From Atopobiaceae bacterium (GTDB lineage Bacteria > Actinomycetota > Coriobacteriia > Coriobacteriales > Atopobiaceae), in assembly GCA_022483015.1 (NCBI GenBank), contig JAKVOB010000001.1:952902-1016901 (forward strand): 64,000 nt of DNA, read 5' to 3'. The notes beneath the pieces were generated by a model that had not been told where the DNA came from, ran no database searches, and saw only the letters and a program-made list of their open reading frames with translations. Every line of letters begins with the position of its first letter. Position 1 is the stretch's first letter. Positions 3,590-24,134 of this stretch are shown in pieces. Made by a program: the position numbers and the translations under genes.

Positions 3590-3594
3590 GGAGC

Positions 3595-6500: not shown

Positions 6501-6942
6501 CTCGGGGCTCGTCCCCGGGCGCGAGTACGAGGTCACGGGGACGCTCGTGGACAAGGGGACGGGCGGTGACGTGACAGGTGCTGACGGCGGCAAGGTCACC
6601 TCGTCGGCGACGTTCACGCCGGAGGCCACCGAGGGCACCGTGGACGTCACCTTCACCTTCGACGGCACGTCCCTGGCCGGCCACGACGTGGTCGCCTTCG
6701 AGACCGTCACGCACGAGGGCCGCGTGGTGGCCACGCATGCGGACCTGTCCGACGAGGGACAGACCGTGGGCATCGTCGAGGTGCCGGTCGTCCCAACGGA
6801 GGGCCTCCCCAAGACCGGCGACGAGGGGCTCCCGCTCGTCCCGGCCGCCGCGCTGGCGCCCTGCGCGGTCGGTGCCGTCGCGGGCTCGTGGGCCCTCCGA
6901 CGTCACGTGGCCCGCGACAGGGGAGGTGAGGGGGATGAGTAA
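3595..6942 (+). CDS. LPXTG-anchored surface adhesin with N-terminal thioester (TQXA-type) domain, Cna-B/SpaA-like domains and four VaFE-type ester-bond repeats
   Basis: Signal peptide. Cys in GVAYCMDGEKHGP (TGC 3871-3873) and Gln in SVTQIAIWYH (CAG 4030-4032). Repeats contain VVAFE and HxDxxDxxQ. LPKTG (6805-6819) is followed by a hydrophobic stretch and a basic tail. Confidence 0.9.
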   Translation: MSSKGRGAAEAVRRHVRGALRGGTAARVAVVMAAVACLVGQTLGVSGATPALAQGEQASYYNDHGGDVGPYEASSFGCYQRTDDGSDSGVAYCMDGEKHGPNAEVTYTSEGGSDTVLSYLVAYGYPNGTTICGRTLSAGEARSVTQIAIWYHRGYDLTAQGLSGERLDLAQLGIRFCQEAEAYEASGGANLGCGTVWYANDSSQRMLLTSEAKGGVELTKSSANHEVTDANGSYSLAGAVYTVYSDAACTKAVATITTDAAGRGSASGLVQGSYWAKETTPASNYALSGDVIAFKVAGGQVTQVAAEDAPQVNDLGTVLAKLDAETGRASALGAGTLGGATFEVGYYDGQYDAESLPPKATRTWTVTTETDGTADLSSAKGDALYHDAAGRACVPVGTVTVRETAAPEGYLATGGTQVAHVTSSGTAELVSAYVAPKVPEQVKRGDLSLVKVREGSMARLAGVPFLITSKSTGEAHVVVTDANGEASTSSSWNAHTSGTNSNDDATTGAATSAAAGVWFSGSTSQATAADDSKGALPYDTYSVTELRCEANEGLDLVSFDVTVTRDATCVNGGTVDDQEGPAIATTLTGEGGEHMAQADATATLTDTVEYENLTVGREYELTGTLMDRSTGKAVTDADGDAVTATTTFTPRLSTGTTTVTFELDTSALAGRSVVAFESLTLDGKVVATHADIDDDWQTVDIPKVGTTATDAEDGAHDACADGDVTLEDVVAYENLVPGKEYQITGTLMDKGTGEEVTGPDGEPVTSTTTFTPEAPSGSETVTFRFDPSLMAGRTVVAFEELTHEGRTYAVHADIDDEGQSVTFPKVSTTATDAADGDKLVDATEGGEVVDVVSYEGVTPGKAYVVSGTLVDSGTGDVLSTGTTELVPDGESGTCEVRFEVDATGMEGRSLVCTEELSRGGKVVATHADLSDEGQTVGVPAIGTTATDAADGDHEAEASAEVTIVDTVEYSGLVPGREYEVTGTLVDKGTGGDVTGADGGKVTSSATFTPEATEGTVDVTFTFDGTSLAGHDVVAFETVTHEGRVVATHADLSDEGQTVGIVEVPVVPTEGLPKTGDEGLPLVPAAALAPCAVGAVAGSWALRRHVARDRGGEGDE
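5341..6783 (+). repeat. Four tandem ~120-aa (~360-nt) intragenic VaFE/ester-bond domain repeats
   Basis: Each unit runs (G/S)TTATDA...V(E/S)YE(N/G)L.PG.EY...GTL.D..TG...VVAFE.L...G..VA.HAD..D.(G/W)Q.V. Boundaries are approximately 5341/5707/6070/6421/6783. Confidence 0.85.
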
Positions 6943-7126: not shown

Positions 7127-8251
7127 ATGGCGAAGGGCAGGGGAGGGGCGAACGACGCGATCGCGGAGGGCCGTGCGGAGGTCGTCTCGCAGATAGCGGA
7201 GGCCATGGAGAGGGACGGGCTCGCGTGGGCGGCCGAGTGGAAGGGATGCTGGTCGCCGACGAACCCCACGACTGGGAGGGCCTATCGCGGCCTCAACAGG
7301 GTCTCCCTCGCTGCGGCGATGCACCACGGAGGCTTCGAGGATCCGCGCTGGTGCACGTTCAACCAGATACGGGGCGCCGGGTGGCACGTGGAGCGTGGCG
7401 CCAAGGCCACGGGCTCAGTGGAGTTCTGGAGCTGGTACGTGCCGACCAAGCGCTTCGGCGGGACGCGTGTCGTGACGCTCCAGAGGGCCGAGCAGCTCGT
7501 GCGGGACGGCAGGCTCCCAGAGGAGGCCCTCGGCGGCGCGTTCCTGAGTGGCAGGCTACACCACGTGTTCAACGGATCGCAGATCGTGGGGATAGGGCCC
7601 TTCGACGTGAGCGCCCATGCATCTGCGTCTTCCGAGGTCGAGCGTATAGCCGACGAGTTCATAGCGTCATCACGGTGTCCCGTGGCAGAGGTCGCGGGGG
7701 ACAGGGCCTTCTACCGCCCCTCCGAGGACAGGATCTACCTGCCGAGGCGTGCGCAGTTCACGACCATGGACGGCTTCGCGAGGACGGCGCTCCACGAGAT
7801 GTGCCACTCGACGGCACGTGAGGTGGGCCGTGAGGTCGAGCGGGGGCGGGAGGGATATGCGCGCGAGGAGCTCGTGGCCGAGCTGGGGAGCGTGTTCGCC
7901 GCAGCGGACGCCGGGCTCGACATGGGGGCCTTCGCCAACGCCGACATGGGGCAGACGTTCCTCGAGAACCATGCCGCCTACCTCAGGAGCTGGCTCGGTG
8001 CGATAAAGGACGACCCAGAGGCGCTCGCGAGGGCGGCGACGGCCGCGAGCAAGGCCGCGAGCTACGTCGGGGATAGGAGGGAGGGTCTGCTCGAGGAGCG
8101 CACGAGGGCCATCGCCCTGGATGCCAGGCAGGCCGTGCCAACCGATGTGAGGTCGCTCTCCGAGCGCGCCGGGACCGCGCGGGCTGCGGGCGGGCCCGTC
8201 CATGCGGGACCGTGCCGCGCCATGGGGGAGCCAGGGCCGCTTGAGCCTTGA
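7127..8251 (+). CDS. ardC: ArdC-like antirestriction protein (N-terminal ssDNA-binding domain + C-terminal zincin metallopeptidase)
   Basis: N-terminal region typical of ArdC/DUF1738 (GLNRVSLAAAMHHGGFEDPRWCTFNQIRGAGWHVERG). HExxH motif HEMCH at 7793-7807. Located in a conjugative element. Confidence 0.85.
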   Translation: MAKGRGGANDAIAEGRAEVVSQIAEAMERDGLAWAAEWKGCWSPTNPTTGRAYRGLNRVSLAAAMHHGGFEDPRWCTFNQIRGAGWHVERGAKATGSVEFWSWYVPTKRFGGTRVVTLQRAEQLVRDGRLPEEALGGAFLSGRLHHVFNGSQIVGIGPFDVSAHASASSEVERIADEFIASSRCPVAEVAGDRAFYRPSEDRIYLPRRAQFTTMDGFARTALHEMCHSTAREVGREVERGREGYAREELVAELGSVFAAADAGLDMGAFANADMGQTFLENHAAYLRSWLGAIKDDPEALARAATAASKAASYVGDRREGLLEERTRAIALDARQAVPTDVRSLSERAGTARAAGGPVHAGPCRAMGEPGPLEP

Positions 8252-8520: not shown

Positions 8521-9030
8521 TCAGATGATAGCGACGAGGTCGGACAGGTACTCGTAGCTCGACCGCGTCATGCCGAGCATGGCGCAGAGCTCCGTCTCGC
8601 CGTCCCGTGTGCCCAGGAGCTCCGGGTGCGCCTGACAGGCGAGATCGTGGAGCCAAGTCGCGAGCTGTGCGAGCGAGCCCCCGCCTGGGTGCCATGTCGC
8701 CCCAAGCTCTCGCAGGCGCTCCACGTCGGCGAGGTCGGGGCCGATGCGGAGCCACCTCGTGATCCCATCGATGGCCACGGAGAGCACCAGCGGGGCCTCC
8801 TCGTGCGAGATGAGCAGGAACGACCAGCCCCTGCGTCTCCTCGCGGTTGCACCGGTTTCCACGTCTCGGACGTCATAGCAGTCGGCGCAGAGGACCATGG
8901 AGCCGTCCTCGCGGAACGCGAGGGTGAAGTCGGCGAGCATGCTCTTCGCGGCAAAGGGCTCGGGCCTCGTGAACCTGTCGGTATCGAGGGACTCGAGCCT
9001 GCCGTCATCGTAGGAGACGTCGATCCTCAT
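8521..9030 (-). CDS. Hypothetical protein (169 aa), translationally coupled to the relaxase
   Basis: Its ATG overlaps the relaxase stop (ATGA overlap at 9027-9030). Non-repetitive translation. No recognisable motif. Confidence 0.6.
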   Translation of the reverse strand: MRIDVSYDDGRLESLDTDRFTRPEPFAAKSMLADFTLAFREDGSMVLCADCYDVRDVETGATARRRRGWSFLLISHEEAPLVLSVAIDGITRWLRIGPDLADVERLRELGATWHPGGGSLAQLATWLHDLACQAHPELLGTRDGETELCAMLGMTRSSYEYLSDLVAII

Positions 9031-10262
9031 CGTTCCTGGCCCCTCTCCTCGCGCTGCGGCTGCCGTGCAGGTGCGTTGCCCTTCATGCTCGTCGGTCCTA
9101 GCCCGCGGATGGTGTCGATCGTGCTACTGGTGCTTTCGCCGGGTGTCTTGCCAGGGCTGTCGTCATGCTCGGGGAGGATGCCATTCCTACTCGCGTAGGC
9201 GCGTGCCCGCGTGATCCTGCGCACGGCTCCCTCGTCGTTCCTCGACCTGGCCCTTGTCGCTCCGGCGTCGAGCTGTTCTAGGGACGTCGCATGGTTCTCC
9301 CGGGCTGTGCCCACGGTTTCGGCGAGGCGACGGAGCTCCGCCAGGTCCCGTACCTCCATGGCGTCTCGGGCGATCGCTTCGATGCGTCCCCGGGAGCCCT
9401 CGGGGGTCTTCGCCCTGCGAGGACTCGACAGCTCGCGGGTCACGTTCGGCCTCTGGTAGTCGGTGCCGAGCCGCGTGCCGGTGACGCATCGGGACGGCTG
9501 GGCGGAGAGCGCGAACTTCCAGTCCCCGTTCCTGGTGTCCTCGACCGTGATGCCCATCGTGGAGAGGACGTCCCTGAGGTCGTCCGCATCTCGTGCGACG
9601 CCCCTTGCGATGTCGACTCGGGCCCGGATGTCGGTAACCCAGGAGTAGCCGTCTCTCTCTGCAATCTCGGACTCCTCGCGCCCGACGTGGACCCTCTGGT
9701 AGTCCGTCCGCGCCCCAGTCTCGCGCGTGTCGCGATGGTCCGGGTCGAGCCTTCCCTCGAAGTGAGAGAGACCCATCTCTTGCGAGATCGCCTGGAGTCG
9801 TCCGTTGAGCGCCCCTGGGTCTGGGTCCTGCAGGCGCCGGCCCGTCCTCACGTTGGTGTTGTTCACGATCACATGGGCGTGGGGGACGTGGTTCTCGTTG
9901 TCGTCGTGGTAGACGATGGCGACCTGGAAGTCGAGGAAGGAATCCCTCGCCCAGGATGTCGCCATCACCCTGAGCCGAGCGAGCGTGACGGCGTCGGCTG
10001 GGTCGGGGGAGAGGACGTAGTGCTTGTAGGTGCGAGCCTGTCGCCCTCGCCACGGCGAGTTGTTTCCCTCCGCGGCACGCCGGTCGTCCATGGCCTCGTC
10101 CCAGGCATAGTCCTCGTACACGGGGAGCCCGTCCTCGTCCTCTCCGATGACAGGGGCGTCGAGTTCGAGGTAGTCATGCGCCAAGGCTCGACCGTCCCGT
10201 TCGAAGTAGCGTCTTGCGCCTGCGAGGCCGGTGTGACCCGATATGGGCTTCACGTACGTCAT
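9027..10262 (-). CDS. Relaxase/mobilization nuclease (MobP-type, Pfam Relaxase-like)
   Basis: MTYVKPISGHTGLAGARRYFERDGR... with histidine triad YHDDNENHVPHAHVIVNN. Start taken at ATG 10262, 8 nt after the mobC stop, rather than at track start 10418. Confidence 0.9.
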   Translation of the reverse strand: MTYVKPISGHTGLAGARRYFERDGRALAHDYLELDAPVIGEDEDGLPVYEDYAWDEAMDDRRAAEGNNSPWRGRQARTYKHYVLSPDPADAVTLARLRVMATSWARDSFLDFQVAIVYHDDNENHVPHAHVIVNNTNVRTGRRLQDPDPGALNGRLQAISQEMGLSHFEGRLDPDHRDTRETGARTDYQRVHVGREESEIAERDGYSWVTDIRARVDIARGVARDADDLRDVLSTMGITVEDTRNGDWKFALSAQPSRCVTGTRLGTDYQRPNVTRELSSPRRAKTPEGSRGRIEAIARDAMEVRDLAELRRLAETVGTARENHATSLEQLDAGATRARSRNDEGAVRRITRARAYASRNGILPEHDDSPGKTPGESTSSTIDTIRGLGPTSMKGNAPARQPQREERGQER

Positions 10263-10269
10263 CGTACGC

Positions 10270-10692
10270 TCACCAGACGAAGAAGCTGGGTCGGTCCGAC
10301 ATCGCAGAGACGTCCTCGCGGAGGCAGCCGAGCGAGTCCTTGACGAAGGACATGTCCGCATGGACGAGCGAGAGCACCTCCGCGACGTCCTCGGGGTCCG
10401 CATCGCCCTCTCGAACACCCTTGGCCATGGTGTTGAGGGCTCGCACGGACTGGTTGTAGAGCGTGCCTATGGCATGGAGGTTGTAGGAGACCTCGTGGGA
10501 GGTTGCGTAGTCGAACACGATCGGCGCGCCGGAGAGAAGATGGGTGCATGGCAGCTGCACGTAGTGGGCGAAGAGGCGGACGAGGTCGGTCTTGTTGACG
10601 CCATATGCCTCTGCGGCCTTCGCAAGGGCGTCGTCCTCCTCTACCGAGAGCCGCAGCCACAGGCGTCTTGGCCTCGTCTCGTTGCCAACCAT
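10270..10692 (-). CDS. mobC: MobC-family relaxosome accessory protein (ribbon-helix-helix)
   Basis: RLWLRLSVEEDDALAKAAEAYGVNKTDLVR (RHH-like) and GTLYNQSVRALN (MobC N-x-NQ-like motif). Immediately upstream of the relaxase. An alternative start is at 10749. Confidence 0.75.
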   Translation of the reverse strand: MVGNETRPRRLWLRLSVEEDDALAKAAEAYGVNKTDLVRLFAHYVQLPCTHLLSGAPIVFDYATSHEVSYNLHAIGTLYNQSVRALNTMAKGVREGDADPEDVAEVLSLVHADMSFVKDSLGCLREDVSAMSDRPSFFVW

Positions 10693-10838
10693 TCGGATCA
10701 CCCCAGGGGCGCGGGGGCTCCCCCGCAACGCTTCGCATGGAGCCGACACGCGCGACCGCGAGACGCCTCCCCGACAGACGACAGTCTGAGGGGAGCGCGG
10801 CGCGGCCGTGGCGCTGTTGGCGAGAATGGCGAACGAGT

Positions 10839-10870
10839 CCTATTCCGCACACTTGTGTGCACGGAATAGG
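10839..10870. promoter_or_regulatory. Inverted repeat upstream of mobC; candidate oriT or operator
   Basis: CCTATTCCG-cacacttgtgtgca-CGGAATAGG, with the spacer itself partly palindromic. It lies in the mobC upstream region exactly at the GC-content break. Confidence 0.3.
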
Positions 10871-10954
10871 CTACTTGCTGACTGGGCGCGTAGAATGAGG
10901 CAGCTACAAATTGTCAATACAGGATTGCAAAGAAACTTCGAATTGAACGGCGGT

Positions 10955-13900
10955 ATGATGGATTCAACTCAATCTAATCTCGGCCAAGCGGTGTTTGATA
11001 TCGCGCAGGCCGCCAATAACTCAGCAAATGAGGAACAGCTAAAAGTCGCTATTGAGGGAGTTCTTCGTACCCTTTGTGTGTCTCACGACGTGTTCTGGAA
11101 TCCGTATACTCTTGAAAAGAGCTTTCTCGGAGGAAGAAAACGACTCGACGTGGTTCATGGTGCAGTCGTAATCGAGTACGAGCCCCCTCGGTCGTTCAAT
11201 GCCAAGATTAATGCTCAACTACGCCATGCAAGGAAACAGGTCGAAGAGTATTCGGTTTTACTTTCATCTGAAGAGGGACGTGCAATTGAGGAATATACCC
11301 TAATTGTATTCGACGGCGTAACAATTGATTATGGAAAATGGACTCAAGGCAGTGTCGTCTGGGAGACACAGAAGCCATTCGATAAGGAAGACTTGGTCCG
11401 AGTACTGAGGAGCATCGAGGAAAACGGTAATCCTCTTGTAAGTCCTGCGCTGCTAACACAAATCGTTGGTCCAGACACGAAAGTCGGAAGAGCGCTGCTT
11501 CCCGCCCTTTATAAGCTGGTTGTTGCTGCGTGCGATTCAAAAGAGACTACAAGAACGAAACTCATTTTTACTGAGTGGGAGAGGCTCTTTGGTGAAGTCG
11601 ACGGTGATGCAACCTCACGCCTTGATGACTATCTGAGACAGATTAGCAAAGAGCATAGTGTCGAGTATTCTCACAATCCGCAAGCGTACGTGTTCGCTTT
11701 GAACACGTATATTGCCATTGTGGCGAAGCTCGTATCAGCGTTCACTCTTCAAGTGAGTCGGGAGTTCATTCAAAACCAGTCGCTTCCTACGCTCGATTTC
11801 TTCGAGTTGGTTGAGAGAGGAGATTTCTTTGCTGACTCAGGAATCAAGAACATGCTATCTGTTGACTTCTTTTCATGGTATGTCTCCGAAGAGGGATCAG
11901 ACCAATTAGTAGAAGGACTCTCTCTGCTTCTGAATGAGCTCAGGCTCGTAAACTTCGACATCACCCGGAAGAGTCCCTCCTCGGTTCGCGATTTGTTTAA
12001 GGGCCTCTATATGGGCTTTACTCCATCTGCATTGCGGCATGCGCTTGGAGAGTATTACACCCCGGATTGGCTTGCCGATCATGTGGTGAACTGTTCTGGG
12101 TGGAAGACCGAAGAGTCATTCCTTGACCCAACTTGTGGATCCGGCACTTTCGTTCTAGAAGCGTTAAAGAGACGCATTGAGAAAGCAAGTCCCGAGGATA
12201 CAGCAGAGAAGCTGCTGGATGGCCTTTTTGGATTTGACCTAAACCCCCTAGCCGTTCTTACGACAAGAGCATCGATTGTGGTGTTCTTATCAGATAGATT
12301 TGATGCTGCGCATCCAGTTCTTCTCCCCATCTATCTTGCTGATGCAATCAATACCGCAGATCCAATTATGGGCACCTTTCGGCATTCGTTTCTCACTGAG
12401 CGGGGCGAGAGATCCTTTCTAATACCTGAGGCCCTGGCGCGCGATGATGAGTTTTATGATGTCATGAACTCTTTGAAGAATCTAATAGATGGTGATGCTT
12501 CATCCGATAAGTGTCTGAAGTCGCTAACGCGGTTTATCAGTGTACGAAACCTCTCCTCACTGGACAGCGCTCATCTTGCTGAGACGGTTGGCAGCCTGGT
12601 GTCCCTTCATAAAGACCACTGGAATGGAATATGGTGCTCGATCCTCTTCGATCGAATTGCTGCCGGTTGTGTACATGATATTGATGCCGTTGTCGGTAAT
12701 CCTCCATGGGTGAAATGGAGCAATTTGCCTCGCGCGTATGCTGAATTCATCAAGCCAATATGTAACGACATGGAGATATTTAGCGAGGACACTTGGGTCG
12801 GTGGTATTCAATCTGATATTTCGACGGTAGTGTTCTACAAGGATTTTGGGCGGTTCGTAAAGCGCGGCGGGACACTCGCATTTCTAATTACTGGGTCAGT
12901 TTTCAAAAACGAGTCGAGTCAAGGGTTTCGTAGATGGACCCTGGTTCATCAGGATGACTCAGGAGAGATTGTTAAAGAGCCGTTTTCGGTCTCTTTTGTC
13001 GAGGACTATCAAGCAGTGAAACCATTCGATGGCGTTGCAGCAAATTGGCCTACGCTAATTGTGGCTAGGAGAGACGGGTCTTCTACGGGTTATCCGGTGC
13101 CGTATCGGCGTTGGGCCCCTGGTATAGCATCCTCCAAGCACTACTCAGATGATGCTGAGTTTTCCGAGTCTTGTGAAAGGGAGGACCTAGTTGCTATTCC
13201 TGTGCCAGGAACTGATGCGGGGCCATGGCTTGATGGCTGCCCTGCAGATATACAGATTTGGAATCAGTTGTTTACGAGGCACGGCGAGTCTTCTGAATAT
13301 GCGGCTCGCAAGGGGATTACAACAGATGCCAACGGAATCTACTTTGTGGACACCTCGGAGGCACATGGTTGCTCTGGGATGGTTAGGGTTGCCAATAACC
13401 CAGATAACGGTAGAAGAAGGGATATACGGCGTCTGGCCACAGAAATAGAAACGGACTGTGTCTATCCCTTGCTAAAGGGACGGGGCATCAGCAGGTTTAA
13501 CGCATCGGTTGGACAGCACTCCGGAGTGATAGTCCCGCAGACCGGCATGAGCGGTGACGAAGATTTGCCAGTGAATTGTCCAAGTACGTTTGGGTTTCTC
13601 AGCCAGTTTAAGAAGGTACTTATTCAGCGTTCAAGCTATCGTCGGTTCCAACAGGGGAAACCGTATTGGTCGGTTTGGTCAACTGGACCCTATACGTTCT
13701 CTCCATATAAGGTTGTGTGGAAAGAGATGAGTGGCAGGAATTTTGTTGCTGCATATGTTGGGTCTGTCGCCATCAACGGCATGGACAAAAGAGTTGTGGT
13801 ACCTGATCATAAAGTCTATTTTGTGCCCGTGGAAACTCTTGAAGAGGCCGCCTATCTATGCGGATTCTTGAATGCTCCGATTGTCTCCCGGGCAATCTCG

Positions 13901-14092
13901 TCCTACGCGCCAGCCCTTAGTCTTGGCACTAGTGTGACGGAGTATCTTGCCATTCCCCCTTTTAATAAGGATTGCAGGGAGATGAGGGAGTTGTCAGACC
14001 TAGCGATTGCTATTACTGAGGGAGATACTTCCTATGATGATGAGGGGGATAGCCTGTCTCTGCTGGTTGATAGCCTCTTACATGAGGAATGA
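10955..14092 (+). CDS. Type IIG/Eco57I-like N6-adenine DNA methyltransferase fusion (N-terminal nuclease-like region, gamma-class MTase core, TaqI_C-like C-terminal region)
   Basis: YYTPDWLA, motif I DPTCGSGTF (12125-12151), motif IV NPPW (12698-12709). N-terminal LDVVHGAVVIEYEPP. Start is uncertain (ATG 10955 or 10895). The track start 10808 runs through the GC-rich IR and is unlikely. Confidence 0.85.
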   Translation: MMDSTQSNLGQAVFDIAQAANNSANEEQLKVAIEGVLRTLCVSHDVFWNPYTLEKSFLGGRKRLDVVHGAVVIEYEPPRSFNAKINAQLRHARKQVEEYSVLLSSEEGRAIEEYTLIVFDGVTIDYGKWTQGSVVWETQKPFDKEDLVRVLRSIEENGNPLVSPALLTQIVGPDTKVGRALLPALYKLVVAACDSKETTRTKLIFTEWERLFGEVDGDATSRLDDYLRQISKEHSVEYSHNPQAYVFALNTYIAIVAKLVSAFTLQVSREFIQNQSLPTLDFFELVERGDFFADSGIKNMLSVDFFSWYVSEEGSDQLVEGLSLLLNELRLVNFDITRKSPSSVRDLFKGLYMGFTPSALRHALGEYYTPDWLADHVVNCSGWKTEESFLDPTCGSGTFVLEALKRRIEKASPEDTAEKLLDGLFGFDLNPLAVLTTRASIVVFLSDRFDAAHPVLLPIYLADAINTADPIMGTFRHSFLTERGERSFLIPEALARDDEFYDVMNSLKNLIDGDASSDKCLKSLTRFISVRNLSSLDSAHLAETVGSLVSLHKDHWNGIWCSILFDRIAAGCVHDIDAVVGNPPWVKWSNLPRAYAEFIKPICNDMEIFSEDTWVGGIQSDISTVVFYKDFGRFVKRGGTLAFLITGSVFKNESSQGFRRWTLVHQDDSGEIVKEPFSVSFVEDYQAVKPFDGVAANWPTLIVARRDGSSTGYPVPYRRWAPGIASSKHYSDDAEFSESCEREDLVAIPVPGTDAGPWLDGCPADIQIWNQLFTRHGESSEYAARKGITTDANGIYFVDTSEAHGCSGMVRVANNPDNGRRRDIRRLATEIETDCVYPLLKGRGISRFNASVGQHSGVIVPQTGMSGDEDLPVNCPSTFGFLSQFKKVLIQRSSYRRFQQGKPYWSVWSTGPYTFSPYKVVWKEMSGRNFVAAYVGSVAINGMDKRVVVPDHKVYFVPVETLEEAAYLCGFLNAPIVSRAISSYAPALSLGTSVTEYLAIPPFNKDCREMRELSDLAIAITEGDTSYDDEGDSLSLLVDSLLHEE

Positions 14093-14658
14093 ATCTAGCC
14101 ACCTATGCCGATAGATGTGGGCTTTGACAGCTTCCCTCGTGTGTCGAGCGCTCCATGCGTGGAGGGGGTGGGGACGGCAGACGCGAGAGCCCAACTGAGG
14201 CCTCATTATCCAAATTCCTGTGCAGATCGGTCTTGGCAAAGTCGTACCACGCGTCCGACTGCTACCGGGAATGTTGTCCATATTGGAAGAACGGAGATGG
14301 TTATTATCGACTATTGGTGACCCATTGACCTGGTGATGATTCTCCTGAATTCGCAAGTAGTCTCGTACGCGGTGTTGTCTTAGGTACTTGCCCTCGGGAG
14401 TTCTTGGAACGGAATCGTCTTTTAGTGGAGGGGCAGGCGTGTATGAACTCACATCAGTAATAAGTGCCGCTCGCCCGATAGTACAATTAGCCGTGAATCA
14501 AAGTGCGCCCCTTTGTACATGCACCATTGAGTGCAAGAAGAGGCGGAATGCCATCGCATTCTGAGAGGCGTGGGGCAATGCCTGCTTCATCGTTTCCGAA
14601 CGCCGGACATTGATATCGAGCATGACGTCACAGCCATGTATGGATAGGTTGGTGCTTC

Positions 14659-16368
14659 TTGCGACTTCATGAGTTAACCATACAGAACTACCGCGGTCTG
14701 AAGAACTGCCGCATCTTGTTAGGGGACGATTCTCCGCTCTCATGTCTGATTGGTCCAGGTGACTCCGGAAAGAGCACTGTCCTGTCTGCCGTGGAGTGGG
14801 CCTTTTGGCCGCGTTATAACCTGGGTGTCGGCGATGTCGACTTCTACAAATGCGATACGTCACAGCCAATTGTGATTGCAGCGTCGGTGAGCGGGTTTCC
14901 AGACGAGCTGTTGAAGGAGAGTAAGTTTGCGCTCTACCAGAGAGGTCTTCCACTTGATGGCGGAGGATTCGGCGAAGACGATGATCCCAAGGACGGGCGG
15001 CGCGTGCTAACCGTCAGACTTACCATTGGGAGTGATCTTGAGCCTTCGTGGGAAGTTATCAAGAACAATCGCGAGCCGAAACGAATCGGTGCTTCAGATA
15101 GGGCCATGATTCCCGTCTGCGTGGTTGGCAGCGGCGCTGGTAAAGACACGACATGGGGAAGGCATTCGCTACTCCAGAGATATGCGACATCAAATAGCGC
15201 AATGAAATCGACCTCTATCGAGGCACTCCGTCGACTCAGTACGCTGGAACTCTCGGATCTCGATGCGGCGACAGCCGAGCTGCCTAAACAGGTTGAATCG
15301 TTTGGCGTGAATGTCAGTGGCGATTCCTTTGTGAACCGGTTTCTGATGACTGGCGCTCAGCTCCCCTCGCAGGCAGGACTATTTGACGGTGATGCTCCTC
15401 TTGCGCTGCTTGGTACGGGATCAAGAAGGCTGTTCTCCATAGCCATGGGATTCCGCCTGTCCCAAAACGGTTCTCTAGTTCTAGTTGATGAGATTGAGAG
15501 CGGCCTTGAGCCCCATAGGCTATGCAACCTAATCCAGCTTCTAAGAGCTATGGGGTCTGACGTCCATTCGCACGTGATTTTCACGACTCACTCTCCCGTA
15601 GCACTTAGAGAGATGCAAAGCGATGAACTGTACGCGTTCCATTGCTTAGGCGGGATAGCCCAATCGCATCCGCTCGCTTCAGATGACAACGAAATCTCAA
15701 ACGATGTTCAGGCTCAGCTGCGTAAATCAGCGGAGTCATTTCTCGCCAAACGTGTTGTGGTTTGCGAAGGAAGCACCGAAGTGGGGGTTCTTCGGGCGAT
15801 TGACTGTAGCATTCGCGAGAAAGATGATTATGGAATCACCGCGGCCGGGGTCGCTCCATCGGACGCGGGAGGTGGAAAAAACATGTTCAAGTATGCCCGG
15901 CACTTTAAAGATGCTGGCTATGACGTGTGCATTTTTATGGACTCTGACAAACCCTACGAAGATGACAAGAAGGCAATGAGGGACAACGGCATTTCCGTGT
16001 TTGACTGTGACGAGGGGCTCTTTCTGGAGCAGCAGGTTTTCACAGATGTGGATTTCGAAGGGGTAAGGGAGCTCCTCTACTATGTTGAAAAGAAGATCGG
16101 AAAGCAGCGTGTCGGCGATCAGCTGAGATGCCAGGGATTGCACCTGGACGAGATCTTTGCTCCTGGCCAGGATGGTCTGACCCTGGTGCTTCGCCAGCGT
16201 CTTGGAAAGATTGCGGGCGAGAAGGGATGGTTCAAGTCCGTTACGGGCGGCGAGATACTCGGAACCATTGCTCTAAAACATCTTCGGGTCAACGAAGGTC
16301 CTGATGGCAATACGACCCTTGCCAATCACTTCGCCGGGATTTCGAGGTGGGCAATTGGGCAGGATTGA
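14659..16368 (+). CDS. gajA: OLD-family ATP-dependent endonuclease (ABC-type ATPase + TOPRIM), Gabija GajA-like
   Basis: TTG start giving MRLHELTIQNYRGL. Walker A GPGDSGKST (14752-14778). Walker B LVLVDEIESGLEP. TOPRIM Glu in VVVCEGSTE (15766-15768) and DSD (15940-15948). Followed by a UvrD-like helicase. Confidence 0.85.
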   Translation: MRLHELTIQNYRGLKNCRILLGDDSPLSCLIGPGDSGKSTVLSAVEWAFWPRYNLGVGDVDFYKCDTSQPIVIAASVSGFPDELLKESKFALYQRGLPLDGGGFGEDDDPKDGRRVLTVRLTIGSDLEPSWEVIKNNREPKRIGASDRAMIPVCVVGSGAGKDTTWGRHSLLQRYATSNSAMKSTSIEALRRLSTLELSDLDAATAELPKQVESFGVNVSGDSFVNRFLMTGAQLPSQAGLFDGDAPLALLGTGSRRLFSIAMGFRLSQNGSLVLVDEIESGLEPHRLCNLIQLLRAMGSDVHSHVIFTTHSPVALREMQSDELYAFHCLGGIAQSHPLASDDNEISNDVQAQLRKSAESFLAKRVVVCEGSTEVGVLRAIDCSIREKDDYGITAAGVAPSDAGGGKNMFKYARHFKDAGYDVCIFMDSDKPYEDDKKAMRDNGISVFDCDEGLFLEQQVFTDVDFEGVRELLYYVEKKIGKQRVGDQLRCQGLHLDEIFAPGQDGLTLVLRQRLGKIAGEKGWFKSVTGGEILGTIALKHLRVNEGPDGNTTLANHFAGISRWAIGQD

Positions 16369-16387
16369 GCTGTTGTCTGATGCCGAC

Positions 16388-17779
16388 ATGTGCTTGCAGC
16401 GAGTTGCTGCTGTTGCGCCTGCGGGGTTTGGAAAGACTGAGCGCATAGCTGGGGCAGTGGCATCTCCCAATGCGAGGACCTTGATTCTGACTCACACGAA
16501 CGCGGGTGTTCGTGCTCTGAGGCAACGCATCTACTCGAAGGAGGTCCCGGCGTTCTCGTATCGTGTTGCGACGATTGCCGGGTGGTGCGAGTCTTGGGTG
16601 TCCACATATCGTGCGACGACCGGATATTCCTCGTTTGCAGAGTTAAAGGGAGCGTCTCCCAGCGCCTACTATCCAAGGGTTTACGCTGCCATGAAGAAGC
16701 TTCTCGGGTGCGAATGGGTGGCAGACTCGTTAAAATCCTCCTACTCGAGAGTGCTTGTTGACGAGTACCAGGATTGCACCATGACACAGAATGAGCTCAT
16801 TCTGTCGCTCTCCGAAACCATCCCCATTACTGTCTTCGGCGACCCAATGCAAGGTATCTTCTACTGGACGAAAGACGACCAGCTGGTGAACTGGGGATGC
16901 CTCAACATGCCCATACGGGATATGGGCGGGAAGCCGTGGCGTTGGATAAACTCTGGGCATGAGAGCTTAGGCAGATACGTTCAAGAGGTGAGAGAGATGC
17001 TCCTGCCTACTCTAGATGGGCGGGATGTTTCGTTGACGCTCAAGACAGATTGCTCCGATGTCCAGATTATTAGTAAAGATGAACTGCGTAAGTGGCAACC
17101 TGAGCGTAATGACGGGAGTGCTGTATTTCTTTCGACGATTAAGGGAGTACAGAACGGGTTCTCGAACCGTCACCATGGCTTCCAATCGAACGAGGCAGTG
17201 GATAATCCTGAGGCAAAGGAATTCTGTGAACGTGTAGACAGCGAGGTCGGCACCGATCTCGCTCTGGTGGTGCTCGGTTTTCTCGGCAGATGCTATACGC
17301 GAATGAACCAGCAGATGTCTTCGTATGTTCGCCACTTGAAAAACGGTGATTTCGACTTCAGGCGAATTAGCAAACATAGTGACGTCGGGAGGACCCTCAC
17401 CGTCCTCGAGAGCCACTCTACTATTGAAGCGGTATGGAACATCATCTCTGCAGTAAATGAGTGCAAGGATTTCAGGCTTTATCGCGGTGTCTTGGTCTGG
17501 GAGGTCACCAAGGCCCTCGAGCTTGCTATGGAAAATCAGACCACTGCTCTTGAGGGGCTGGAGCTTTGCAGGAGCAGAGGAGTGTCTTTCAGGGATTACT
17601 GTCCGTTTCCCCGCTTGTCATCCAGAACTGTGCTCTCCAAGGGGTTGGAATACGATACCTCCATCGTGGATGTGTCGAGCATGCCAGACCCAAGAGATCT
17701 CTACGTTGCGATATCTCGCTGCAAAAAGAAGCTGGTTCTCGTTTCGGATTGTCAAACGCTGCAGCTCCGTGGAATCTAA
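16388..17779 (+). CDS. gajB: UvrD/Rep-like superfamily-1 helicase, Gabija GajB-like
   Basis: APAGFGKT, VLVDEYQD (16760-16774), VFGDPMQGIF, SKGLEYDTSIV, LYVAISRCKKKLVLV. Start is ATG 16388, or CTG/TTG at 16370/16373 directly after the gajA stop. Confidence 0.85.
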   Translation: MCLQRVAAVAPAGFGKTERIAGAVASPNARTLILTHTNAGVRALRQRIYSKEVPAFSYRVATIAGWCESWVSTYRATTGYSSFAELKGASPSAYYPRVYAAMKKLLGCEWVADSLKSSYSRVLVDEYQDCTMTQNELILSLSETIPITVFGDPMQGIFYWTKDDQLVNWGCLNMPIRDMGGKPWRWINSGHESLGRYVQEVREMLLPTLDGRDVSLTLKTDCSDVQIISKDELRKWQPERNDGSAVFLSTIKGVQNGFSNRHHGFQSNEAVDNPEAKEFCERVDSEVGTDLALVVLGFLGRCYTRMNQQMSSYVRHLKNGDFDFRRISKHSDVGRTLTVLESHSTIEAVWNIISAVNECKDFRLYRGVLVWEVTKALELAMENQTTALEGLELCRSRGVSFRDYCPFPRLSSRTVLSKGLEYDTSIVDVSSMPDPRDLYVAISRCKKKLVLVSDCQTLQLRGI

Positions 17780-17823
17780 GTGCGTCGACTCTCATACTCC
17801 CGAGACGGATGGTCTCGCATTTT

Positions 17824-17858
17824 CCCTCACGCGCGTTAGGTGTTCCTGCGCGTGAGGG
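17824..17858 (+). terminator. Stem-loop closing the AT-rich cargo block
   Basis: CCCTCACGCGC-13 nt-GCGCGTGAGGG, 45 nt after the gajB stop. Confidence 0.5.
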
Positions 17859-17974
17859 GAGCGGCCGCGGGAGGGCTTGGCTGCGGCCGTGGCGGTGGAA
17901 AAGGGGGTGCCGCCCACGTTCTCCGTGGACGGCACCTTTGCCACCGTGGGCGGTCAGTCCTTTGTCCTAGGGTC

Positions 17975-18753: not shown

Positions 18754-19101
18754 ATGGAGTGGGTCTACCAAGATGTCGTTGTCGAGACGGTCGACTGGTT
18801 TGCGCGAAGGGCCATTCCCGATTCAGGTAACTGGCATGGTGAGAGCTACCGAATCCAGCAGGTAGCAATGATTGGCGGGAGCGCTTGGAGGGTCGAGATC
18901 GACATTCCTACCTCCGCTGAGGATGCTTGGCTGAGTTTCATCATCGAGGCCTCTGATGAGACTGGCGAGACGTCCGTTTCCGACATTGAGTGTGTGCGTG
19001 GAGGACGTGCTGAGCATTTCTACGAGACATATAGCTGGAATGACAACTCGGGGGAGTGGGCAGTAATTGATCTCTTGGATGGTGACTCCTCTCAATCTTG
19101 A
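18754..19101 (+). CDS. Hypothetical acidic protein (115 aa)
   Basis: Coherent translation in a lower-GC block. Same strand as, and 109 nt upstream of, the 368-aa ORF. No recognisable motif. Confidence 0.5.
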   Translation: MEWVYQDVVVETVDWFARRAIPDSGNWHGESYRIQQVAMIGGSAWRVEIDIPTSAEDAWLSFIIEASDETGETSVSDIECVRGGRAEHFYETYSWNDNSGEWAVIDLLDGDSSQS

Positions 19102-19210
19102 TTGTATGGTCTATCTGAGGTCCTTGCCTATATGCTGATGGGCCTACTGTTTTGAACGGTGCTTTCGATATGGGCCGTGAGCTGCCTGGCGATTTAGCGA
19201 GAGGGATAGT

Positions 19211-20317
19211 ATGCCTGACGATATGGAAGAATCGCCTGTCTGTAGCGAGGTCGGCATGCCCGACTACTTGGGGGTCTTCACCACATCAATGAAGACCTAC
19301 AGGCGGTTCTCCGAACACCTGCCGGTGAATGGCCATGTTGTCGATCTGGCTAATGGCGCGAAGAAGGCATCGGACGTTGTTGGCGAGACCAACGAATCAG
19401 ACTACTTTGGTGTCATGATTCGTCTCATGCTCCAGAGGAAGTACTTCCAACGTGGCGGGGATCACAAGAAGCCCAATCCCCTGTTTATAAGAAACCTTGT
19501 CAAGACCGCGCAGGGCAGTTATCCAGATCAGTCTGACACGTGGCAGCACGTCCTAGAGAGACTCGATGATCTCAAAAAATGCGAGGTTCAAGTCTCTCTC
19601 CCGGATGGAACAGTTCAAGCTGGTTTCTTTGATAACGTCCAGGATGTTACATATGGAGCACTTCTTCATGCCGATCCAGACAAGCTCGAACGGGTTGCCC
19701 AGATTCCGGAGTCTATGCAGACCATATATGTCGGTGAATACGTTATGGCGCGGGAGAGAATACTGGTCGACTTTTCTGATGCCCTGCAGGCGTCGGGAGT
19801 GAAGACGCTTGATTCTCATAAGACCGAACGGAAGGCGTCGGTCTACATGGGACTTCAGGAGGGGTCTGTTGGGAGATCCATCTCTGGGTCGCCTTGTTGG
19901 TCAGGTCTTGTGGGTCGAGATATGGACGATGATGAAATTGCAGACACCGTTTTAAAGAGTGACAGCCTAGAAGACCTATATGTAATTCAAGTCTGCAGCC
20001 AGTTCGTTTCAGAGCTTCTTGAGGACCAACCTGACGTAACAAAGCTAAGCGCAATGGTTGCTCCATGGCTTAGAGAAGAGTGGGGGGACTTTTCGGAGGC
20101 AGCCCAAAAGGTTAAGAACGTTCGCAACATTGGGTTTTCACATACTGTCGATTATAGGGATGGTGGCATTGGAGCCGTCGTTAAGATGCTGCCTGATGTA
20201 GAAGCGGCGTTTTGTGTCGAGGGGCCTCAGCTAATCGAAGACGGTGAGGTCGGTTTAGTCAAAACCGGCCAGGGATGGAAAGTGATGCGCCTCTATCCCC
20301 CACAATATGGACAATGA
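19211..20317 (+). CDS. Hypothetical protein (368 aa), no recognisable domain
   Basis: Long non-repetitive ORF in a lower-GC block with no competing ORF of similar quality. GAGAGGGATAG lies before the ATG. Confidence 0.65.
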   Translation: MPDDMEESPVCSEVGMPDYLGVFTTSMKTYRRFSEHLPVNGHVVDLANGAKKASDVVGETNESDYFGVMIRLMLQRKYFQRGGDHKKPNPLFIRNLVKTAQGSYPDQSDTWQHVLERLDDLKKCEVQVSLPDGTVQAGFFDNVQDVTYGALLHADPDKLERVAQIPESMQTIYVGEYVMARERILVDFSDALQASGVKTLDSHKTERKASVYMGLQEGSVGRSISGSPCWSGLVGRDMDDDEIADTVLKSDSLEDLYVIQVCSQFVSELLEDQPDVTKLSAMVAPWLREEWGDFSEAAQKVKNVRNIGFSHTVDYRDGGIGAVVKMLPDVEAAFCVEGPQLIEDGEVGLVKTGQGWKVMRLYPPQYGQ

Positions 20318-20377: not shown

Positions 20378-21643
20378 CTATTTCGCCTTGGCTGTTTTGT
20401 TACTCCGGCCGTCCGTGCTTGGGAACAGTAGAACCGTGCCTCCCTTGTCGGGTTCCGGCCTCCTGCTCATGACATCGTCGATGGTCTTCGCCGCGGCCCT
20501 CTTGGAGGCCGGGTCTGCGCTCGCGTAGATGTCGAGCGTCATCGAGGCGTTGGCATGCCCCAGGATCGAGCTCACGGTCTTCACGTCCACGCCCTCGGCG
20601 ATGGCGAAGGTGGCGAACGTGTGCCTGAGGTCGTGGAACGAGGGTACCCTGCCCTGCGTGCCCACGAGCCCCATCGAGCTCGCGAGCGCGTTCCACTGCT
20701 TCCAGACGGTGAAGACGCTCGCATATCCCCCGCGGACGTCGCCCAGCACGTAGAGCTGCGCCATGCGCTCGCGGGAGTCGTCGAGGTCGGCCTCGAGCCG
20801 CTCGGCCCTCATCTCGCGGTAGCGGTGTCGGAGCGGCCCCACGAGCGCCTCGGCCATGGGGACGTCGCGCCTGCCGCTCGCCGTCTTGGGCTCCTTCACG
20901 TAGGTCCTGCCGCCGTCGCGGGCGATGGCGCGCCTCACCCACACGGTCCTCGCGTCGAAGTCGACGTCGCCCCACCTGAGCGCGCAGATCTCGCCCTGCC
21001 TCATGCCGGTCATGAGGGCGATGGTGACGGCGAGGTTGAAGGGCGTGTCGGCCGCCGCCTCGAGGTAGGCGAGGAGCGTCCTCCTCTGGTCGTCCGGGAG
21101 CGCGTTCGGCATCGTGCGGGCGACCTTCGGCGCCCTCACGCGTGCGACGGGGTTGCGGTCGAGCAGGCCGTCCTCTATGGCCTCCTCGCACACGGTCTTG
21201 AGGAGGACGTGCGCCTTCCTCACGGTCTTGGGGGAGAGGCCGCGTTCGGGACCCATGAGGTCCGCCTCCCATGCCTGGACGTCCTCCGTCGTGAGGTCAC
21301 GCATCGCTATGCCGCAGAGCCCCTCGTCGGCATAGCCTACGTCGCATCGGTAGCCGCGAATCGTGGTCCTCTCCACGGACCTGGACGTCTCGAGCGTGTC
21401 GACGTAGTGGCTCATGTAGTCGATGACGGTGATGTCCGGCCTCATCGACGTCCTCGGCTTGCGCCCTCCCGCACGCCTCTCGAGCGTCGCTCGCACCTCG
21501 GCGAGCTCCCGTTTGGCGTCGCGCATGTTGGACGCCTCGAGCGTGCGGCTCGTCTGGTGCCACCGCCCGTCGCCGTCCTTGTACTTGAAGATCCCGCGGT
21601 AGGGAGGGACGTCTCCCCGGACGAAGCAGTTCGTATATAACAT
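20378..21643 (-). CDS. int: Tyrosine recombinase / integrase of the ICE
   Basis: C-terminal catalytic region ...GMRQGEICALRWGDVD...HDLRHTFATFAIAEGVDVKTVSSILGHANASMTLDIYA. Adjacent to the tRNA-derived att repeat. Confidence 0.93.
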   Translation of the reverse strand: MLYTNCFVRGDVPPYRGIFKYKDGDGRWHQTSRTLEASNMRDAKRELAEVRATLERRAGGRKPRTSMRPDITVIDYMSHYVDTLETSRSVERTTIRGYRCDVGYADEGLCGIAMRDLTTEDVQAWEADLMGPERGLSPKTVRKAHVLLKTVCEEAIEDGLLDRNPVARVRAPKVARTMPNALPDDQRRTLLAYLEAAADTPFNLAVTIALMTGMRQGEICALRWGDVDFDARTVWVRRAIARDGGRTYVKEPKTASGRRDVPMAEALVGPLRHRYREMRAERLEADLDDSRERMAQLYVLGDVRGGYASVFTVWKQWNALASSMGLVGTQGRVPSFHDLRHTFATFAIAEGVDVKTVSSILGHANASMTLDIYASADPASKRAAAKTIDDVMSRRPEPDKGGTVLLFPSTDGRSNKTAKAK

Positions 21644-21659
21644 TCATTCCACCTCTTAT

Positions 21660-21692
21660 GCACCAAGGGGCCTTGGTGCGCGCGCACCAAAT
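21660..21692. promoter_or_regulatory. Overlapping-palindrome motif (three GCACCAA half-sites) in the integrase upstream region, copy 1 of 3
   Basis: GCACCAAGGGGCCTTGGTGCGCGCGCACCAAAT, 17 nt upstream of the int start. The same motif occurs at 24135-24166 and 44201-44233. Confidence 0.5.
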
Positions 21693-21744
21693 CCCGATTA
21701 CCGTGCAGTCCTGTCTTGGCAAAGTTGTACCACGCTGTCCTGGT

Positions 21745-21930
21745 ACCAGCGGCGACGTTGGCCGTATTGGCGAGCATGGCGAGAACGAACATCAAATATT
21801 ATCGACTCATAACCCGGAGGTCGTTGGTTCAAATCCAGCCCCCGCGACCAAAAACATGCAGGTCATCGACGAGAGTCGGTGGCCTGTTTTTGTGTTGGTA
21901 CTACGTTGGTACTGCTTTGGTACTACAGGC
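21745..21930 (+). repeat. Extended att-region direct repeat (arm + tRNA core + hairpin + 3x TTGGTACT)
   Basis: Near-identical to 34551-34735. The first 106 nt are also near-identical to 44286-44391. Confidence 0.85.
21806..21850 (+). repeat. att core: 3' 45 nt of an initiator-like tRNA-Met(CAU), not a complete tRNA
   Basis: CTCATAACCCGGAGGTCGTTGGTTCAAATCCAGCCCCCGCGACCA contains the anticodon loop, the 3' anticodon stem CCC, the T-arm and the acceptor 3' strand + CCA. No matching 5' half (CGCGGGG...) lies upstream. Confidence 0.85.
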
Positions 21931-24087: not shown

Positions 24088-24134
24088 AAGGCACGCAGGC
24101 CATCGGCTTGTCCGATGGCCTGGATTAGTGTCTT

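Follow-up and report, generated by a model that had tools for sequence, protein, structure and literature searches.

Described systems closest to the locus

Gabija consists of two proteins, GajA, an NTP-inhibited nicking endonuclease, and GajB, a sensor of DNA termini (PMC8136825; 10.1101/2023.05.02.539174). Both Gabija and PARIS have been described as embedded in modification-based systems, with the phage protein Ocr as the rationale for a trigger (bioRxiv 10.1101/2024.01.29.577857). The MADS locus contains the methyltransferase (MTase) Mad2, the ABC ATPase Mad3, the Toprim/DUF4276 protein Mad4 and others (PMC12065111). In this study, a low-GC block carrying gene 1, gajA and gajB was analysed in an ICE of a gut actinobacterium (Atopobiaceae), within a window of 64 kb, which is the whole stretch of DNA analysed. 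We consider it probable that this block was acquired horizontally as a defence islet, predicted from sequence to hold two autonomous, already known anti-phage systems in tandem, a type IIG restriction-modification (R-M) enzyme and Gabija. The best reading is an ordinary stacking of defence genes, and the islet would be a further case of defence cargo on a conjugative element.

Gene 1 has the same domain order as the type IIG/IIL enzymes (MmeI, DrdV; profile PDLC03630), namely a putative cleavage domain, an MTase and a target-recognition domain, and its subclade needs no partner gene, like the single-chain enzymes. However, its identity to the solved members is only about 11-13%, and its putative catalytic motif is D-x8-E-x-E, not D...ExK. 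The proteobacterial subclade of the gene-1 family has an extra upstream m5C MTase, which is absent at this locus. The gajAB pair shares gene order, domains and translational coupling with the Gabija of Bacillus cereus VD045 (a class 2 OLD nuclease and a UvrD-like helicase), and the Walker A/B, TOPRIM E...DxD and SF1 motifs of the prototype are all present. It differs in belonging to a distant lineage with separate PADLOC profiles (PDLC04168, PDLC04173), in which R-M genes are enriched directly upstream.

In embedded or guard defences, such as PrrC in EcoprrI and Gabija, PARIS or HEC in Hma, BREX or type I R-M systems (Payne et al., 10.1101/2024.01.29.577857), an ABC-ATPase nuclease is co-directional with a methylation-based system, as it is here. 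At this locus one gene makes up the whole R-M system, so Gabija stands beside it and not inside it, and the gap of 566 nt is larger than in typical embedded cases. Like the block, MADS brings together an MTase, an ATPase of OLD-like type and a Toprim nuclease at a single locus. In the block, however, one protein combines ATPase and Toprim, a UvrD helicase accompanies it, and none of the other mad genes occurs. Membership of MADS was rejected because the NCBIfam models scored 28.1 bits for MAD2 (cut-off 720) and 31.3 bits for MAD3 (cut-off 420) and no further mad genes were found. BREX was rejected as well: the BREX-2 PglX model of NCBIfam gave 24 bits (cut-off 400), and gene 1 lies between a relaxase and gajA.

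Composition and borders of the islet

The block extends over approximately 10.81-17.89 kb with a GC content of 47-55%, compared with 65-72% in the ICE backbone, and holds three genes on the same strand. The GC content of 1-kb windows was 0.63-0.73 across 1-11 kb and 0.47-0.55 across 11-18 kb, and at 100-nt resolution the borders lie at about 10.8-10.9 kb on the left and about 17.8 kb on the right. These data bear out the abrupt drop at about 10.86 kb and the recovery past the hairpin that had been noticed by eye. The GC content of gene 1, gajA and gajB was 0.485, 0.532 and 0.527, respectively, while that of the relaxase, the mobC-like ORF, the UPF0102 gene and the integrase in the backbone was 0.665, 0.646, 0.658 and 0.675. 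GC3 ranged from 0.48 to 0.61 for genes of the block and from 0.81 to 0.92 for the backbone; within the block it was 0.48 for gene 1, compared with 0.57 and 0.61 for gajA and gajB. The forward-strand ORFs of the block run from 10808 or 10955 to 14092, from 14659 to 16368, and from 16304 or 16388 to 17779. The mobC-like ORF at 10270-10749 on the reverse strand, which the original prediction had named mobC, adjoins the relaxase and had no match in Pfam or PADLOC to back that name. The features of the block are listed in Table 1.

Table 1. Features of the low-GC block, in window coordinates
Feature	Position	Strand	Remarks
Left copy of bipartite direct repeat, GAGGGGAGCG-N4-GCGGCCGTGGCG	10788..10813	+	Left edge of low-GC block
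Palindromic hairpin, CCTATTCCGCACACTTGTGTGCACGGAATAGG	10839..10870	.	Between mobC-like gene and gene 1
Gene 1, predicted type IIG restriction-modification enzyme, 1045 aa	10955..14092	+	PADLOC REase_MTase_IIG, Pfam, alignment, AF2 model
Spacer between gene 1 and gajA, 566 nt, GC 0.527	14093..14658	.	
gajA, predicted OLD-family ABC ATPase and TOPRIM nuclease, 569 aa, TTG start	14659..16368	+	PADLOC GajA, Pfam, PDB profile match
gajB, predicted UvrD-like SF1 helicase, 474 aa (TTG 16355) or 463 aa (ATG 16388)	16355..17779	+	PADLOC GajB, Pfam
Two hairpins 3' of gajB	17801..17858	+	17801-17817 then CATTTTCCCT; 12-bp-stem hairpin 17824-17858
Right copy of bipartite direct repeat, GAGGGGAGCG-N19-GCGGCCGTGGCG	17854..17894	+	Right edge of block

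The bipartite repeat pattern, which was chosen post hoc, has exactly two copies in the window, one at each edge of the block, and did not occur in any of 100 shuffles. Since this repeat brackets both systems and the low GC content is common to both, R-M and Gabija may have arrived together, which is a point against two autonomous systems. The 51 nt around the left hairpin (10830-10880) had a folding energy of -21.4 kcal/mol, and this hairpin could act as a terminator or operator or belong to oriT. The hairpin at 17824-17858, already pointed out in the original prediction, is real: it has a 12-bp G+C stem, and the surrounding 91 nt fold at -45.6 kcal/mol (z = -3.3). Together with the hairpin before it, it is likely a bidirectional terminator common to gajB and the convergent UPF0102 gene. 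The 566-nt spacer contained no terminator-like or sigma-70-like site, no Rfam match and, by tblastn, no remnant of any neighbouring gene. As no terminator-like site was found in it, co-transcription of gene 1 and gajAB is possible, a further point against two autonomous systems.

Gene 1 and the gajAB pair

Every motif quoted in the original prediction for the three same-strand genes was found in the translations, and the Pfam and PADLOC profiles agree on the domains. Gene 1 contains YYTPD, DPTCGSGTF and GNPPW; DPTCGSGTF (residues 391-399) and NPPW (582-585) were invariant in an alignment of 64 homologues. The Pfam domains above the cut-off were N6_Mtase, Eco57I and UPF0020. The PADLOC profile REase_MTase_IIG PDLC03630 matched residues 7-1022 at its positions 6-1050 of 1100 (E 1.2e-183). 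The layout comprises an N-terminal putative nuclease domain, a gamma-class N6-adenine MTase and a C-terminal target-recognition domain. The AF2 model had a pLDDT of 88, and Foldseek matched it to CamA, M.BseCI, PglX and DrdV (E 1e-13 to 1e-16 across the four), aligning about 720 columns with CamA and M.BseCI (MTase plus target-recognition domain) and the full length with DrdV and PglX. The family has more than 2,000 homologues, and a conserved m5C MTase partner is located upstream in 18 of 80 relatives, which is R-M-type behaviour.

It is unlikely that gene 1 represents a type IIG relative that has decayed or acts as a methylase only, in other words an orphan MTase, which would leave Gabija as the sole active defence in the islet. 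Such decay would fit the N-terminal motif, which is D...ExE and not the textbook D...ExK. It would also fit the Foldseek search with the isolated N-terminal domain, which found nothing at E<0.1 and only weak hints (E 0.4-0.5) towards NucC and towards a putative REase domain. This missing Foldseek confirmation of the nuclease fold is also a point against two autonomous systems. On the other side, the domain is conserved over about 340 aa and intact, with 46 invariant positions in 31 sequences (38-52% identity), including D65, H68, G69, E74 and E76. In the predicted secondary structure, D65 and E74/E76 of the putative motif D65...E74-x-E76 lie on neighbouring beta-strands followed by a long helix, like PD-(D/E)XK cores. 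The ORF is of full length without a frameshift, and the match to the IIG profile begins at profile position 6. The data point to gene 1 as a self-contained type IIG R-M enzyme with a putative nuclease domain. The earlier description as a type IIG-like methyltransferase fusion was right about the MTase motifs, but the view of an MTase alone gives way to that of a whole R-M enzyme, given the end-to-end IIG profile match and the N-terminal domain.

The second and third genes match Gabija profiles over their full length, as had been proposed for them. PADLOC GajA PDLC04168 aligned with residues 1-565 of gajA at its positions 1-567 of 570 (E 2.5e-134), and GajB PDLC04173 matched gajB over the full length (E 1.3e-95). 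The Pfam domains were AAA_15, AAA_21 and OLD-like_TOPRIM in gajA, and UvrD-helicase and AAA_19 in gajB. GajA carries GPGDSGKST (Walker A), LVLVDEIE (Walker B), and VVCEGSTE and IFMDSD (TOPRIM), and its residues K38, D277, E278, E370, D428 and D430 were invariant in 25 homologues. GajB carries APAGFGKT, VLVDEYQD, FGDPMQG and LYVAISRCKKKL. When the PDB was searched with a profile of the clade, the B. cereus GajA structures were the best matches (8jq9, 8wy4 etc., E 5e-19); single-sequence matches to the solved GajA and GajB were only local (E 1e-5 and 2e-4). The two genes are thus predicted to be a complete Gabija pair whose lineage is far removed from the B. cereus prototype.

The TTG at 14659 is the correct start of gajA, with homologues aligning from residue 1. 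For gajB, the ATG at 16388, about 20 nt past the gajA stop, had been taken as the start. A Shine-Dalgarno sequence, GAGGTGG, lies 5 nt before the TTG at 16355, and other assemblies annotate gajB from this codon as well (474 aa). This TTG is most likely the real start, which gives gajB an overlap of 14 nt with the gajA stop. The public annotation of gene 1 is only "N-6 DNA methylase", and public gene calls of gajA have 493-550 aa, cutting off the Walker A motif. The annotation presented here has value for records that under-name gene 1 and shorten GajA at Walker A.

If gene 1 acts like its family, its C-terminal domain would recognise a DNA site, its gamma-class MTase would methylate adenine in the host sites and its N-terminal nuclease domain would cut incoming unmethylated DNA. 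By analogy with the B. cereus prototype, GajA and GajB would form a complex in which cellular NTPs keep the nuclease inactive until infection releases it, with no need of DNA modification. The order of R-M and gajAB would most likely provide a layered defence with shared transcription, and Gabija could be a back-up that fires once restriction is evaded or inhibited.

Genes that accompany each family

The original prediction had weighed the stacking of two unrelated systems in a single acquired islet against a methylation-linked Gabija variant in which the MTase marks self DNA, and proposed conserved synteny in unrelated genomes as the check. GajA or GajB was found within 10 kb of gene-1 relatives at none of 80 genomic loci, even at E<=1, over 1,165 kb of flank; the positive control of this search passed. 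Conversely, a set of 80 metagenomic loci from this Gabija clade contained no member of the gene-1 family, while GajB lay directly 3' of GajA at all 77 testable loci (the remaining 3 had no sequence there). Other occurrences of the trio were copies of the same ICE only. The methylation-linked variant fails on these counts, and stacking of a self-contained type IIG enzyme beside a complete Gabija is the alternative that is supported.

It is highly improbable that the gene-1 MTase marks host DNA, GajA spares methylated sites and the trio is one R-M-like system. The three genes are adjacent on one strand in one low-GC islet, and the trio is kept in several samples, though all of the same ICE. However, the families never occur together outside this element, gene 1, a member of a type IIG family, has a conserved nuclease-type domain of its own, and the MADS models score far under their cut-offs, as given above. 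MTases near related Gabija loci are of unrelated classes with m6A and m5C chemistries, which makes it implausible that a single conserved nuclease would read a mark dedicated to it. A dedicated system of this kind is therefore unsupported at both sets of 80 loci, and the MTase of gene 1 is no dedicated Gabija component.

The upstream side of this Gabija clade gave an unexpected result. MTase-like genes were present within 5 kb of gajAB on the upstream side at 30 loci, in 263 kb of flank, and on the downstream side at 3 loci, in 194 kb. When the loci were dereplicated at a GajA identity of 70% (58 clusters), an R-M MTase lay within 5 kb in 19 of 34 clusters upstream and 3 of 19 downstream (Fisher test, p=0.008), and within 1.5 kb in 13 of 42 upstream and 1 of 31 downstream (p=0.003). 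The upstream MTases were co-directional with gajAB in 30 of 32 cases, and the gap from the R-M gene to gajA was often 4-100 nt or an overlap. They belong to types I, II, IIG (of a family other than that of gene 1) and III. Among the closest relatives (46-53% identity), an R-M module stood directly upstream in 4 of 5 distinct contexts, while the first downstream neighbour was R-M-like in only 1-2 of 51. Of 61 upstream neighbours, at most 3 came from any one family. The order of R-M followed directly 3' by gajAB on the same strand is typical of this Gabija lineage. The asymmetry indicates that the adjacency is not purely random, and chance stacking does not predict it. As R-M genes of many unrelated types are enriched upstream in the same direction, some regulatory or functional coupling between R-M and this lineage is plausible.

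It is possible, if tentatively so, that the two families are separate but form one functional unit, with gajAB co-transcribed with the upstream R-M gene as a second line. The trigger could be anti-restriction proteins (Ocr-like DNA mimics) or restriction-made DNA ends sensed by GajB. The polarity, co-direction and short gaps described above speak for such coupling, and so do the published activation of Gabija by Ocr, with a possible back-up role of embedded ABC-ATPase systems (10.1101/2024.01.29.577857), and the sensing of DNA termini by GajB (10.1101/2023.05.02.539174). The enrichment agrees with the proposal in the literature that modification-based systems have ABC-ATPase defences as their back-up. 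Against it, the sample is small (58 clusters) with crude ORF-based gene calls, and the 566-nt gap here is the widest among MTase-positive loci. About half of the clade loci have no upstream MTase, and Hma, metabolic and unknown genes are also found among the upstream neighbours. The polarity could also stem from promoter sharing or insertion preference alone, and in published work B. cereus Gabija functions alone after transplantation. The broader claim, that the normal place of this lineage is the 3' end of R-M operons of whatever type (I, II, IIG or III), where it would be co-expressed as a functionally coupled two-layer unit triggered by phage anti-restriction factors or restriction DNA ends, seems doubtful to us.

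The original prediction had called a methylation-linked Gabija undescribed. The idea has precedents, as embedded Gabija and PARIS (10.1101/2024.01.29.577857) and MADS (PMC12065111) have been reported. If the polar enrichment is upheld in a larger, phylogeny-corrected survey, it would be a concrete, testable case of first-line and second-line wiring, with restriction as the first line and Gabija as an abortive or second-line defence. If true, it would extend the idea of embedded defence to single-gene and type II/III R-M systems.

In five other assemblies of this element, the same gajAB pair (99.9% identical) is interrupted at codon 27 of gajA by an insertion element of the IS256 family. This indicates that the loss of Gabija is evidently tolerated.

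Composition and gene content of the low-GC block

The block carries a stacked type IIG restriction-modification (R-M) enzyme and Gabija islet, and both systems are of known kinds. The original prediction had offered this reading next to a methylation-linked Gabija in which the methyltransferase (MTase) marks self DNA, and its first reading was supported. The drop in base composition, the three ORFs with all the motifs quoted for them, and the hairpin behind gajB were confirmed in the window. GC content was 0.63-0.73 upstream, 0.47-0.55 over 11-18 kb and 0.63 at 18-19 kb. The values of gene 1, gajA and gajB were 0.485, 0.532 and 0.527, compared with 0.65-0.68 for the backbone genes, and GC3 was 0.48-0.61 in the block genes compared with 0.81-0.92 in the backbone. 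A smaller T-tailed hairpin stands just before the confirmed one. Because the block has a copy of a bipartite direct repeat, GAGGGGAGCG-N(4/19)-GCGGCCGTGGCG, at each end, the sequence suggests that the whole block occupies a single insertion site in the backbone, and the repeat may be the footprint of cargo entry into the ICE backbone. This pattern, which was defined post hoc, occurred in two copies only in the window and in none of the shuffles. In the spacer between gene 1 and gajA, searches for promoters, terminators, RNA families and hidden genes or gene remnants found nothing.

Features of the block and the surrounding element (window coordinates)
Feature	Position	Strand	Remark
Thioester/TQ surface adhesin	3346-6942		
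ArdC-type anti-restriction protein	7127-8251		ArdcN + zincin-like metallopeptidase
MobA/VirD2 relaxase	9027-10418	minus	
Bipartite repeat, left copy	10788-10813		N4
Perfect palindromic hairpin	10839-10870		CCTATTCCG-CACACTTGTGTGCA-CGGAATAGG
Gene 1	10955-14092	plus	1045 aa, type IIG
Spacer	14093-14658		566 nt
gajA	14659-16368	plus	TTG start
gajB	16355-17779	plus	probable TTG start, 14-nt overlap with gajA
Hairpin	17824-17858		
Bipartite repeat, right copy	17854-17894		N19
Second low-GC islet	18754-20317	plus	ORFs of 115 and 368 aa
Tyrosine integrase	20378-21643	minus	
Integrase gene and flank	20523-21899		repeated at 43064-44440, ~90% identity
186-nt piece	21745-21930		recurs at 34551-34735 (95%)
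69-nt piece	21800-21868		recurs at 24037-24105 (88%)
Schlafen/AlbA_2 + HATPase_c_4 protein	22177-23661		494 aa

Gene 1 matched the REBASE-derived PADLOC profile REase_MTase_IIG (PDLC03630) over residues 7-1022 (profile 6-1050 of 1100, E 1.2e-183), and in Pfam the MTase core alone was recognised. More than 2,000 homologues were found; the nearest non-identical ones, which belong to gut Coriobacteriia, Bifidobacterium and Clostridia, have 57% identity. A 64-sequence alignment of the family showed an invariant N-terminal D65-x8-E74-x-E76 with H68 and G69, together with the MTase motifs. In a confident AlphaFold model (pLDDT 88, pTM 0.87), D65 and E74/E76 are predicted to lie on neighbouring strands before a long helix. 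Foldseek aligned the entire chain with PglX and with DrdV, an enzyme of type IIL; its hits for the MTase and recognition domains were CamA and M.BseCI. A fold search for PD-(D/E)XK with the N-terminal domain alone found nothing significant in the PDB, so this domain is assigned as a putative nuclease from the protein's family and its conserved acidic motif.

GajA matched the PADLOC profile PDLC04168 over its full length (E 2.5e-134) and GajB matched PDLC04173 (E 1.3e-95). The pair retains the conserved Walker A/B, TOPRIM (E and DxD) and SF1 motifs. Pairwise matches to the solved B. cereus GajA and GajB were weak; the best PDB match of the GajA clade profile was B. cereus GajA (E 5e-19). TTG at 14659 is the right gajA start, and it restores the conserved N-terminus. 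Public calls of this GajA (MCH4276843.1, MCH3967831.1 and HBK59803.1) are 493, 525 or 550 aa long and begin either inside the Walker A region or beyond it; the stretch concerned is 14659-14791 in the window.

Association between the gene 1 family and Gabija

Eighty genomic loci with gene 1 relatives (43-57% identity, many phyla) were collected, with at most 10 kb of flank per side. The flanks totalled 1,165 kb, with space for gajAB on one side or both in 74 loci. They were searched with a GajA-clade HMM and by phmmer with GajA and GajB. No GajA or GajB was found near gene 1 relatives in the 80 loci, even at E≤1; as a positive control, the window's own genes were recovered at E 1e-191 and 0. 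The reverse search covered 80 metagenomic loci with GajA relatives (29-40% identity). GajB directly followed GajA in all 77 loci with enough downstream sequence, and the gene 1 family was near GajA in 0/80. Of the two weak family matches near Gabija loci, one was a TaqI_C fragment and the other a type I-like N6_Mtase, both of them other MTases. Further IIG-gajAB trios occurred only as identical copies of this ICE in other samples, one of them on a 2.27-Mb contig. Recurrence of the MTase family with gajAB, proposed as a sign of one system, was thus seen in 0/80 and 0/80 loci, and since the two did not co-occur outside this ICE in the loci searched, a dedicated MTase-Gabija system is not supported.

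A C-5 cytosine (m5C) MTase lies directly upstream of gene 1 relatives on the same strand in 18 of the 80 loci, mostly in Proteobacteria (L029, L031, L033, L034, L047, L049, L050, L052 and 10 others). This enzyme is a typical R-M accessory, and it is absent at the window's gene 1. In five of these 18 loci, genes for a NERD helicase and for a DEAD helicase of 2,100 aa also lie downstream, on the other strand.

R-M genes upstream of the Gabija clade

The closest GajA relatives (46-53% identity) directly follow differing R-M modules on the same strand. Two loci have an Eco57I-type MTase with a T5orf172 protein of 1,080 aa; others have an HTH controller with a divergent m5C MTase and a 554-aa protein, or an RE_HindVP endonuclease with an m5C MTase. 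One context has unannotated genes instead. MTase-like genes were then called by motif and homology over 94 clade loci. On the upstream side, 30 loci had such a gene within 5 kb (263 kb of flank), against 3 loci on the downstream side (194 kb). Once the loci were dereplicated at 70% identity of GajA, 19/34 clusters had one upstream and 3/19 downstream (Fisher p=0.008); within 1.5 kb the figures were 13/42 and 1/31 (p=0.003). Thirty of the 32 upstream MTases were co-directional with gajAB. All ten representatives were strong PADLOC R-M methyltransferases (type I, one; type II, five; another IIG family, one; type III, three), and the first downstream neighbours were R-M-like in just 1 or 2 of 51. 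The first upstream ORF was on the same strand in 58/67 loci, often with a gap of 4-100 nt, and no upstream neighbour family exceeded 3/61.

The many MTase classes upstream argue against GajA reading one particular methyl mark. Together with the co-occurrence of 0/80 and 0/80, this diversity leaves the reading in which the MTase marks self DNA for Gabija unsupported. The upstream, co-directional polarity argues for co-expression or functional layering, and a looser R-M-Gabija coupling is a modest possibility. In L090 and L099, two clade loci, gajAB lies behind an Hma-type array made up of a large helicase-like gene, an MTase and the AAA+ ATPase HmaC (PADLOC HmaC E=0). Some other upstream neighbours in the clade match the MADS mad2 and mad5 profiles.

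The stacked arrangement fits known concepts. Gabija is described as a two-protein system, with GajA an NTP-inhibited nicking endonuclease (PMC8136825) and GajB a sensor of DNA termini that hydrolyses (d)A/(d)GTP (10.1101/2023.05.02.539174). Payne et al. described defence systems embedded in modification-based systems, co-oriented in 96.7%, proposed embedded ABC-ATPase systems as back-ups, and report that Ocr activates PARIS and Gabija (10.1101/2024.01.29.577857). An MTase, an ABC ATPase and a Toprim protein are already known together from MADS (PMC12065111). The window's proteins scored far under the cut-offs for MADS and BREX, and membership of either was rejected on these scores. The clade-wide upstream bias over all R-M types was computed here and was not found stated in the literature cited.

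The surrounding element and its IS256 variants

Judged by sequence, the genes around the block are consistent with an integrative element of the conjugative or mobilisable kind. A TrbL-like gene lies farther upstream in a longer copy of it, and MCH4276844.1, annotated 'N-6 DNA methylase' in an Atopobiaceae bacterium MAG (contig JAKVIT010000011.1, 75,152 bp), is identical to the gene 1 product. The label mobC, given in the original prediction, found no support in Pfam or PADLOC. No tRNA genes were found as attachment sites in the window. The ArdC-type gene lies on the ICE a few kb from the R-M/Gabija cargo. The perfect palindromic hairpin, between the mobC-like/relaxase operon and gene 1, could be part of an oriT or an operator.

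In five other metagenome or MAG contigs (L081-L085), gajAB and the downstream backbone are 98.7-99.97% identical to the window. The homologous part opens precisely at 14739, in codon 27 of gajA, with an IS256-family element upstream of this junction (5-1473 in L084) that has a 432-aa Transposase_mut and 23-nt terminal inverted repeats. Because gajA breaks there next to the IS, Gabija is disrupted in these populations. The contigs end within the IS; the left flank in L084 is 4 nt only, compatible with simple insertion or IS-mediated rearrangement.

Between gajB and the second low-GC islet (GC 0.51-0.54) lies a high-GC UPF0102 (YraN-like) gene on the opposite strand. The two ORFs of this islet had no match in Pfam or PADLOC; other samples have the islet conserved along with the element, and it may represent additional cargo that is still uncharacterised. 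The repeats of the integrase region suggest a tandem arrangement of several related integrative elements or of att-like sites. Just beyond the integrase, the Schlafen/AlbA_2 + HATPase_c_4 protein partially matched the PADLOC 'pAgo' profile (E 3.5e-45, profile 48-448 of 1121), and a gene with the same Pfam families lies downstream of gajAB at the unrelated locus L168.
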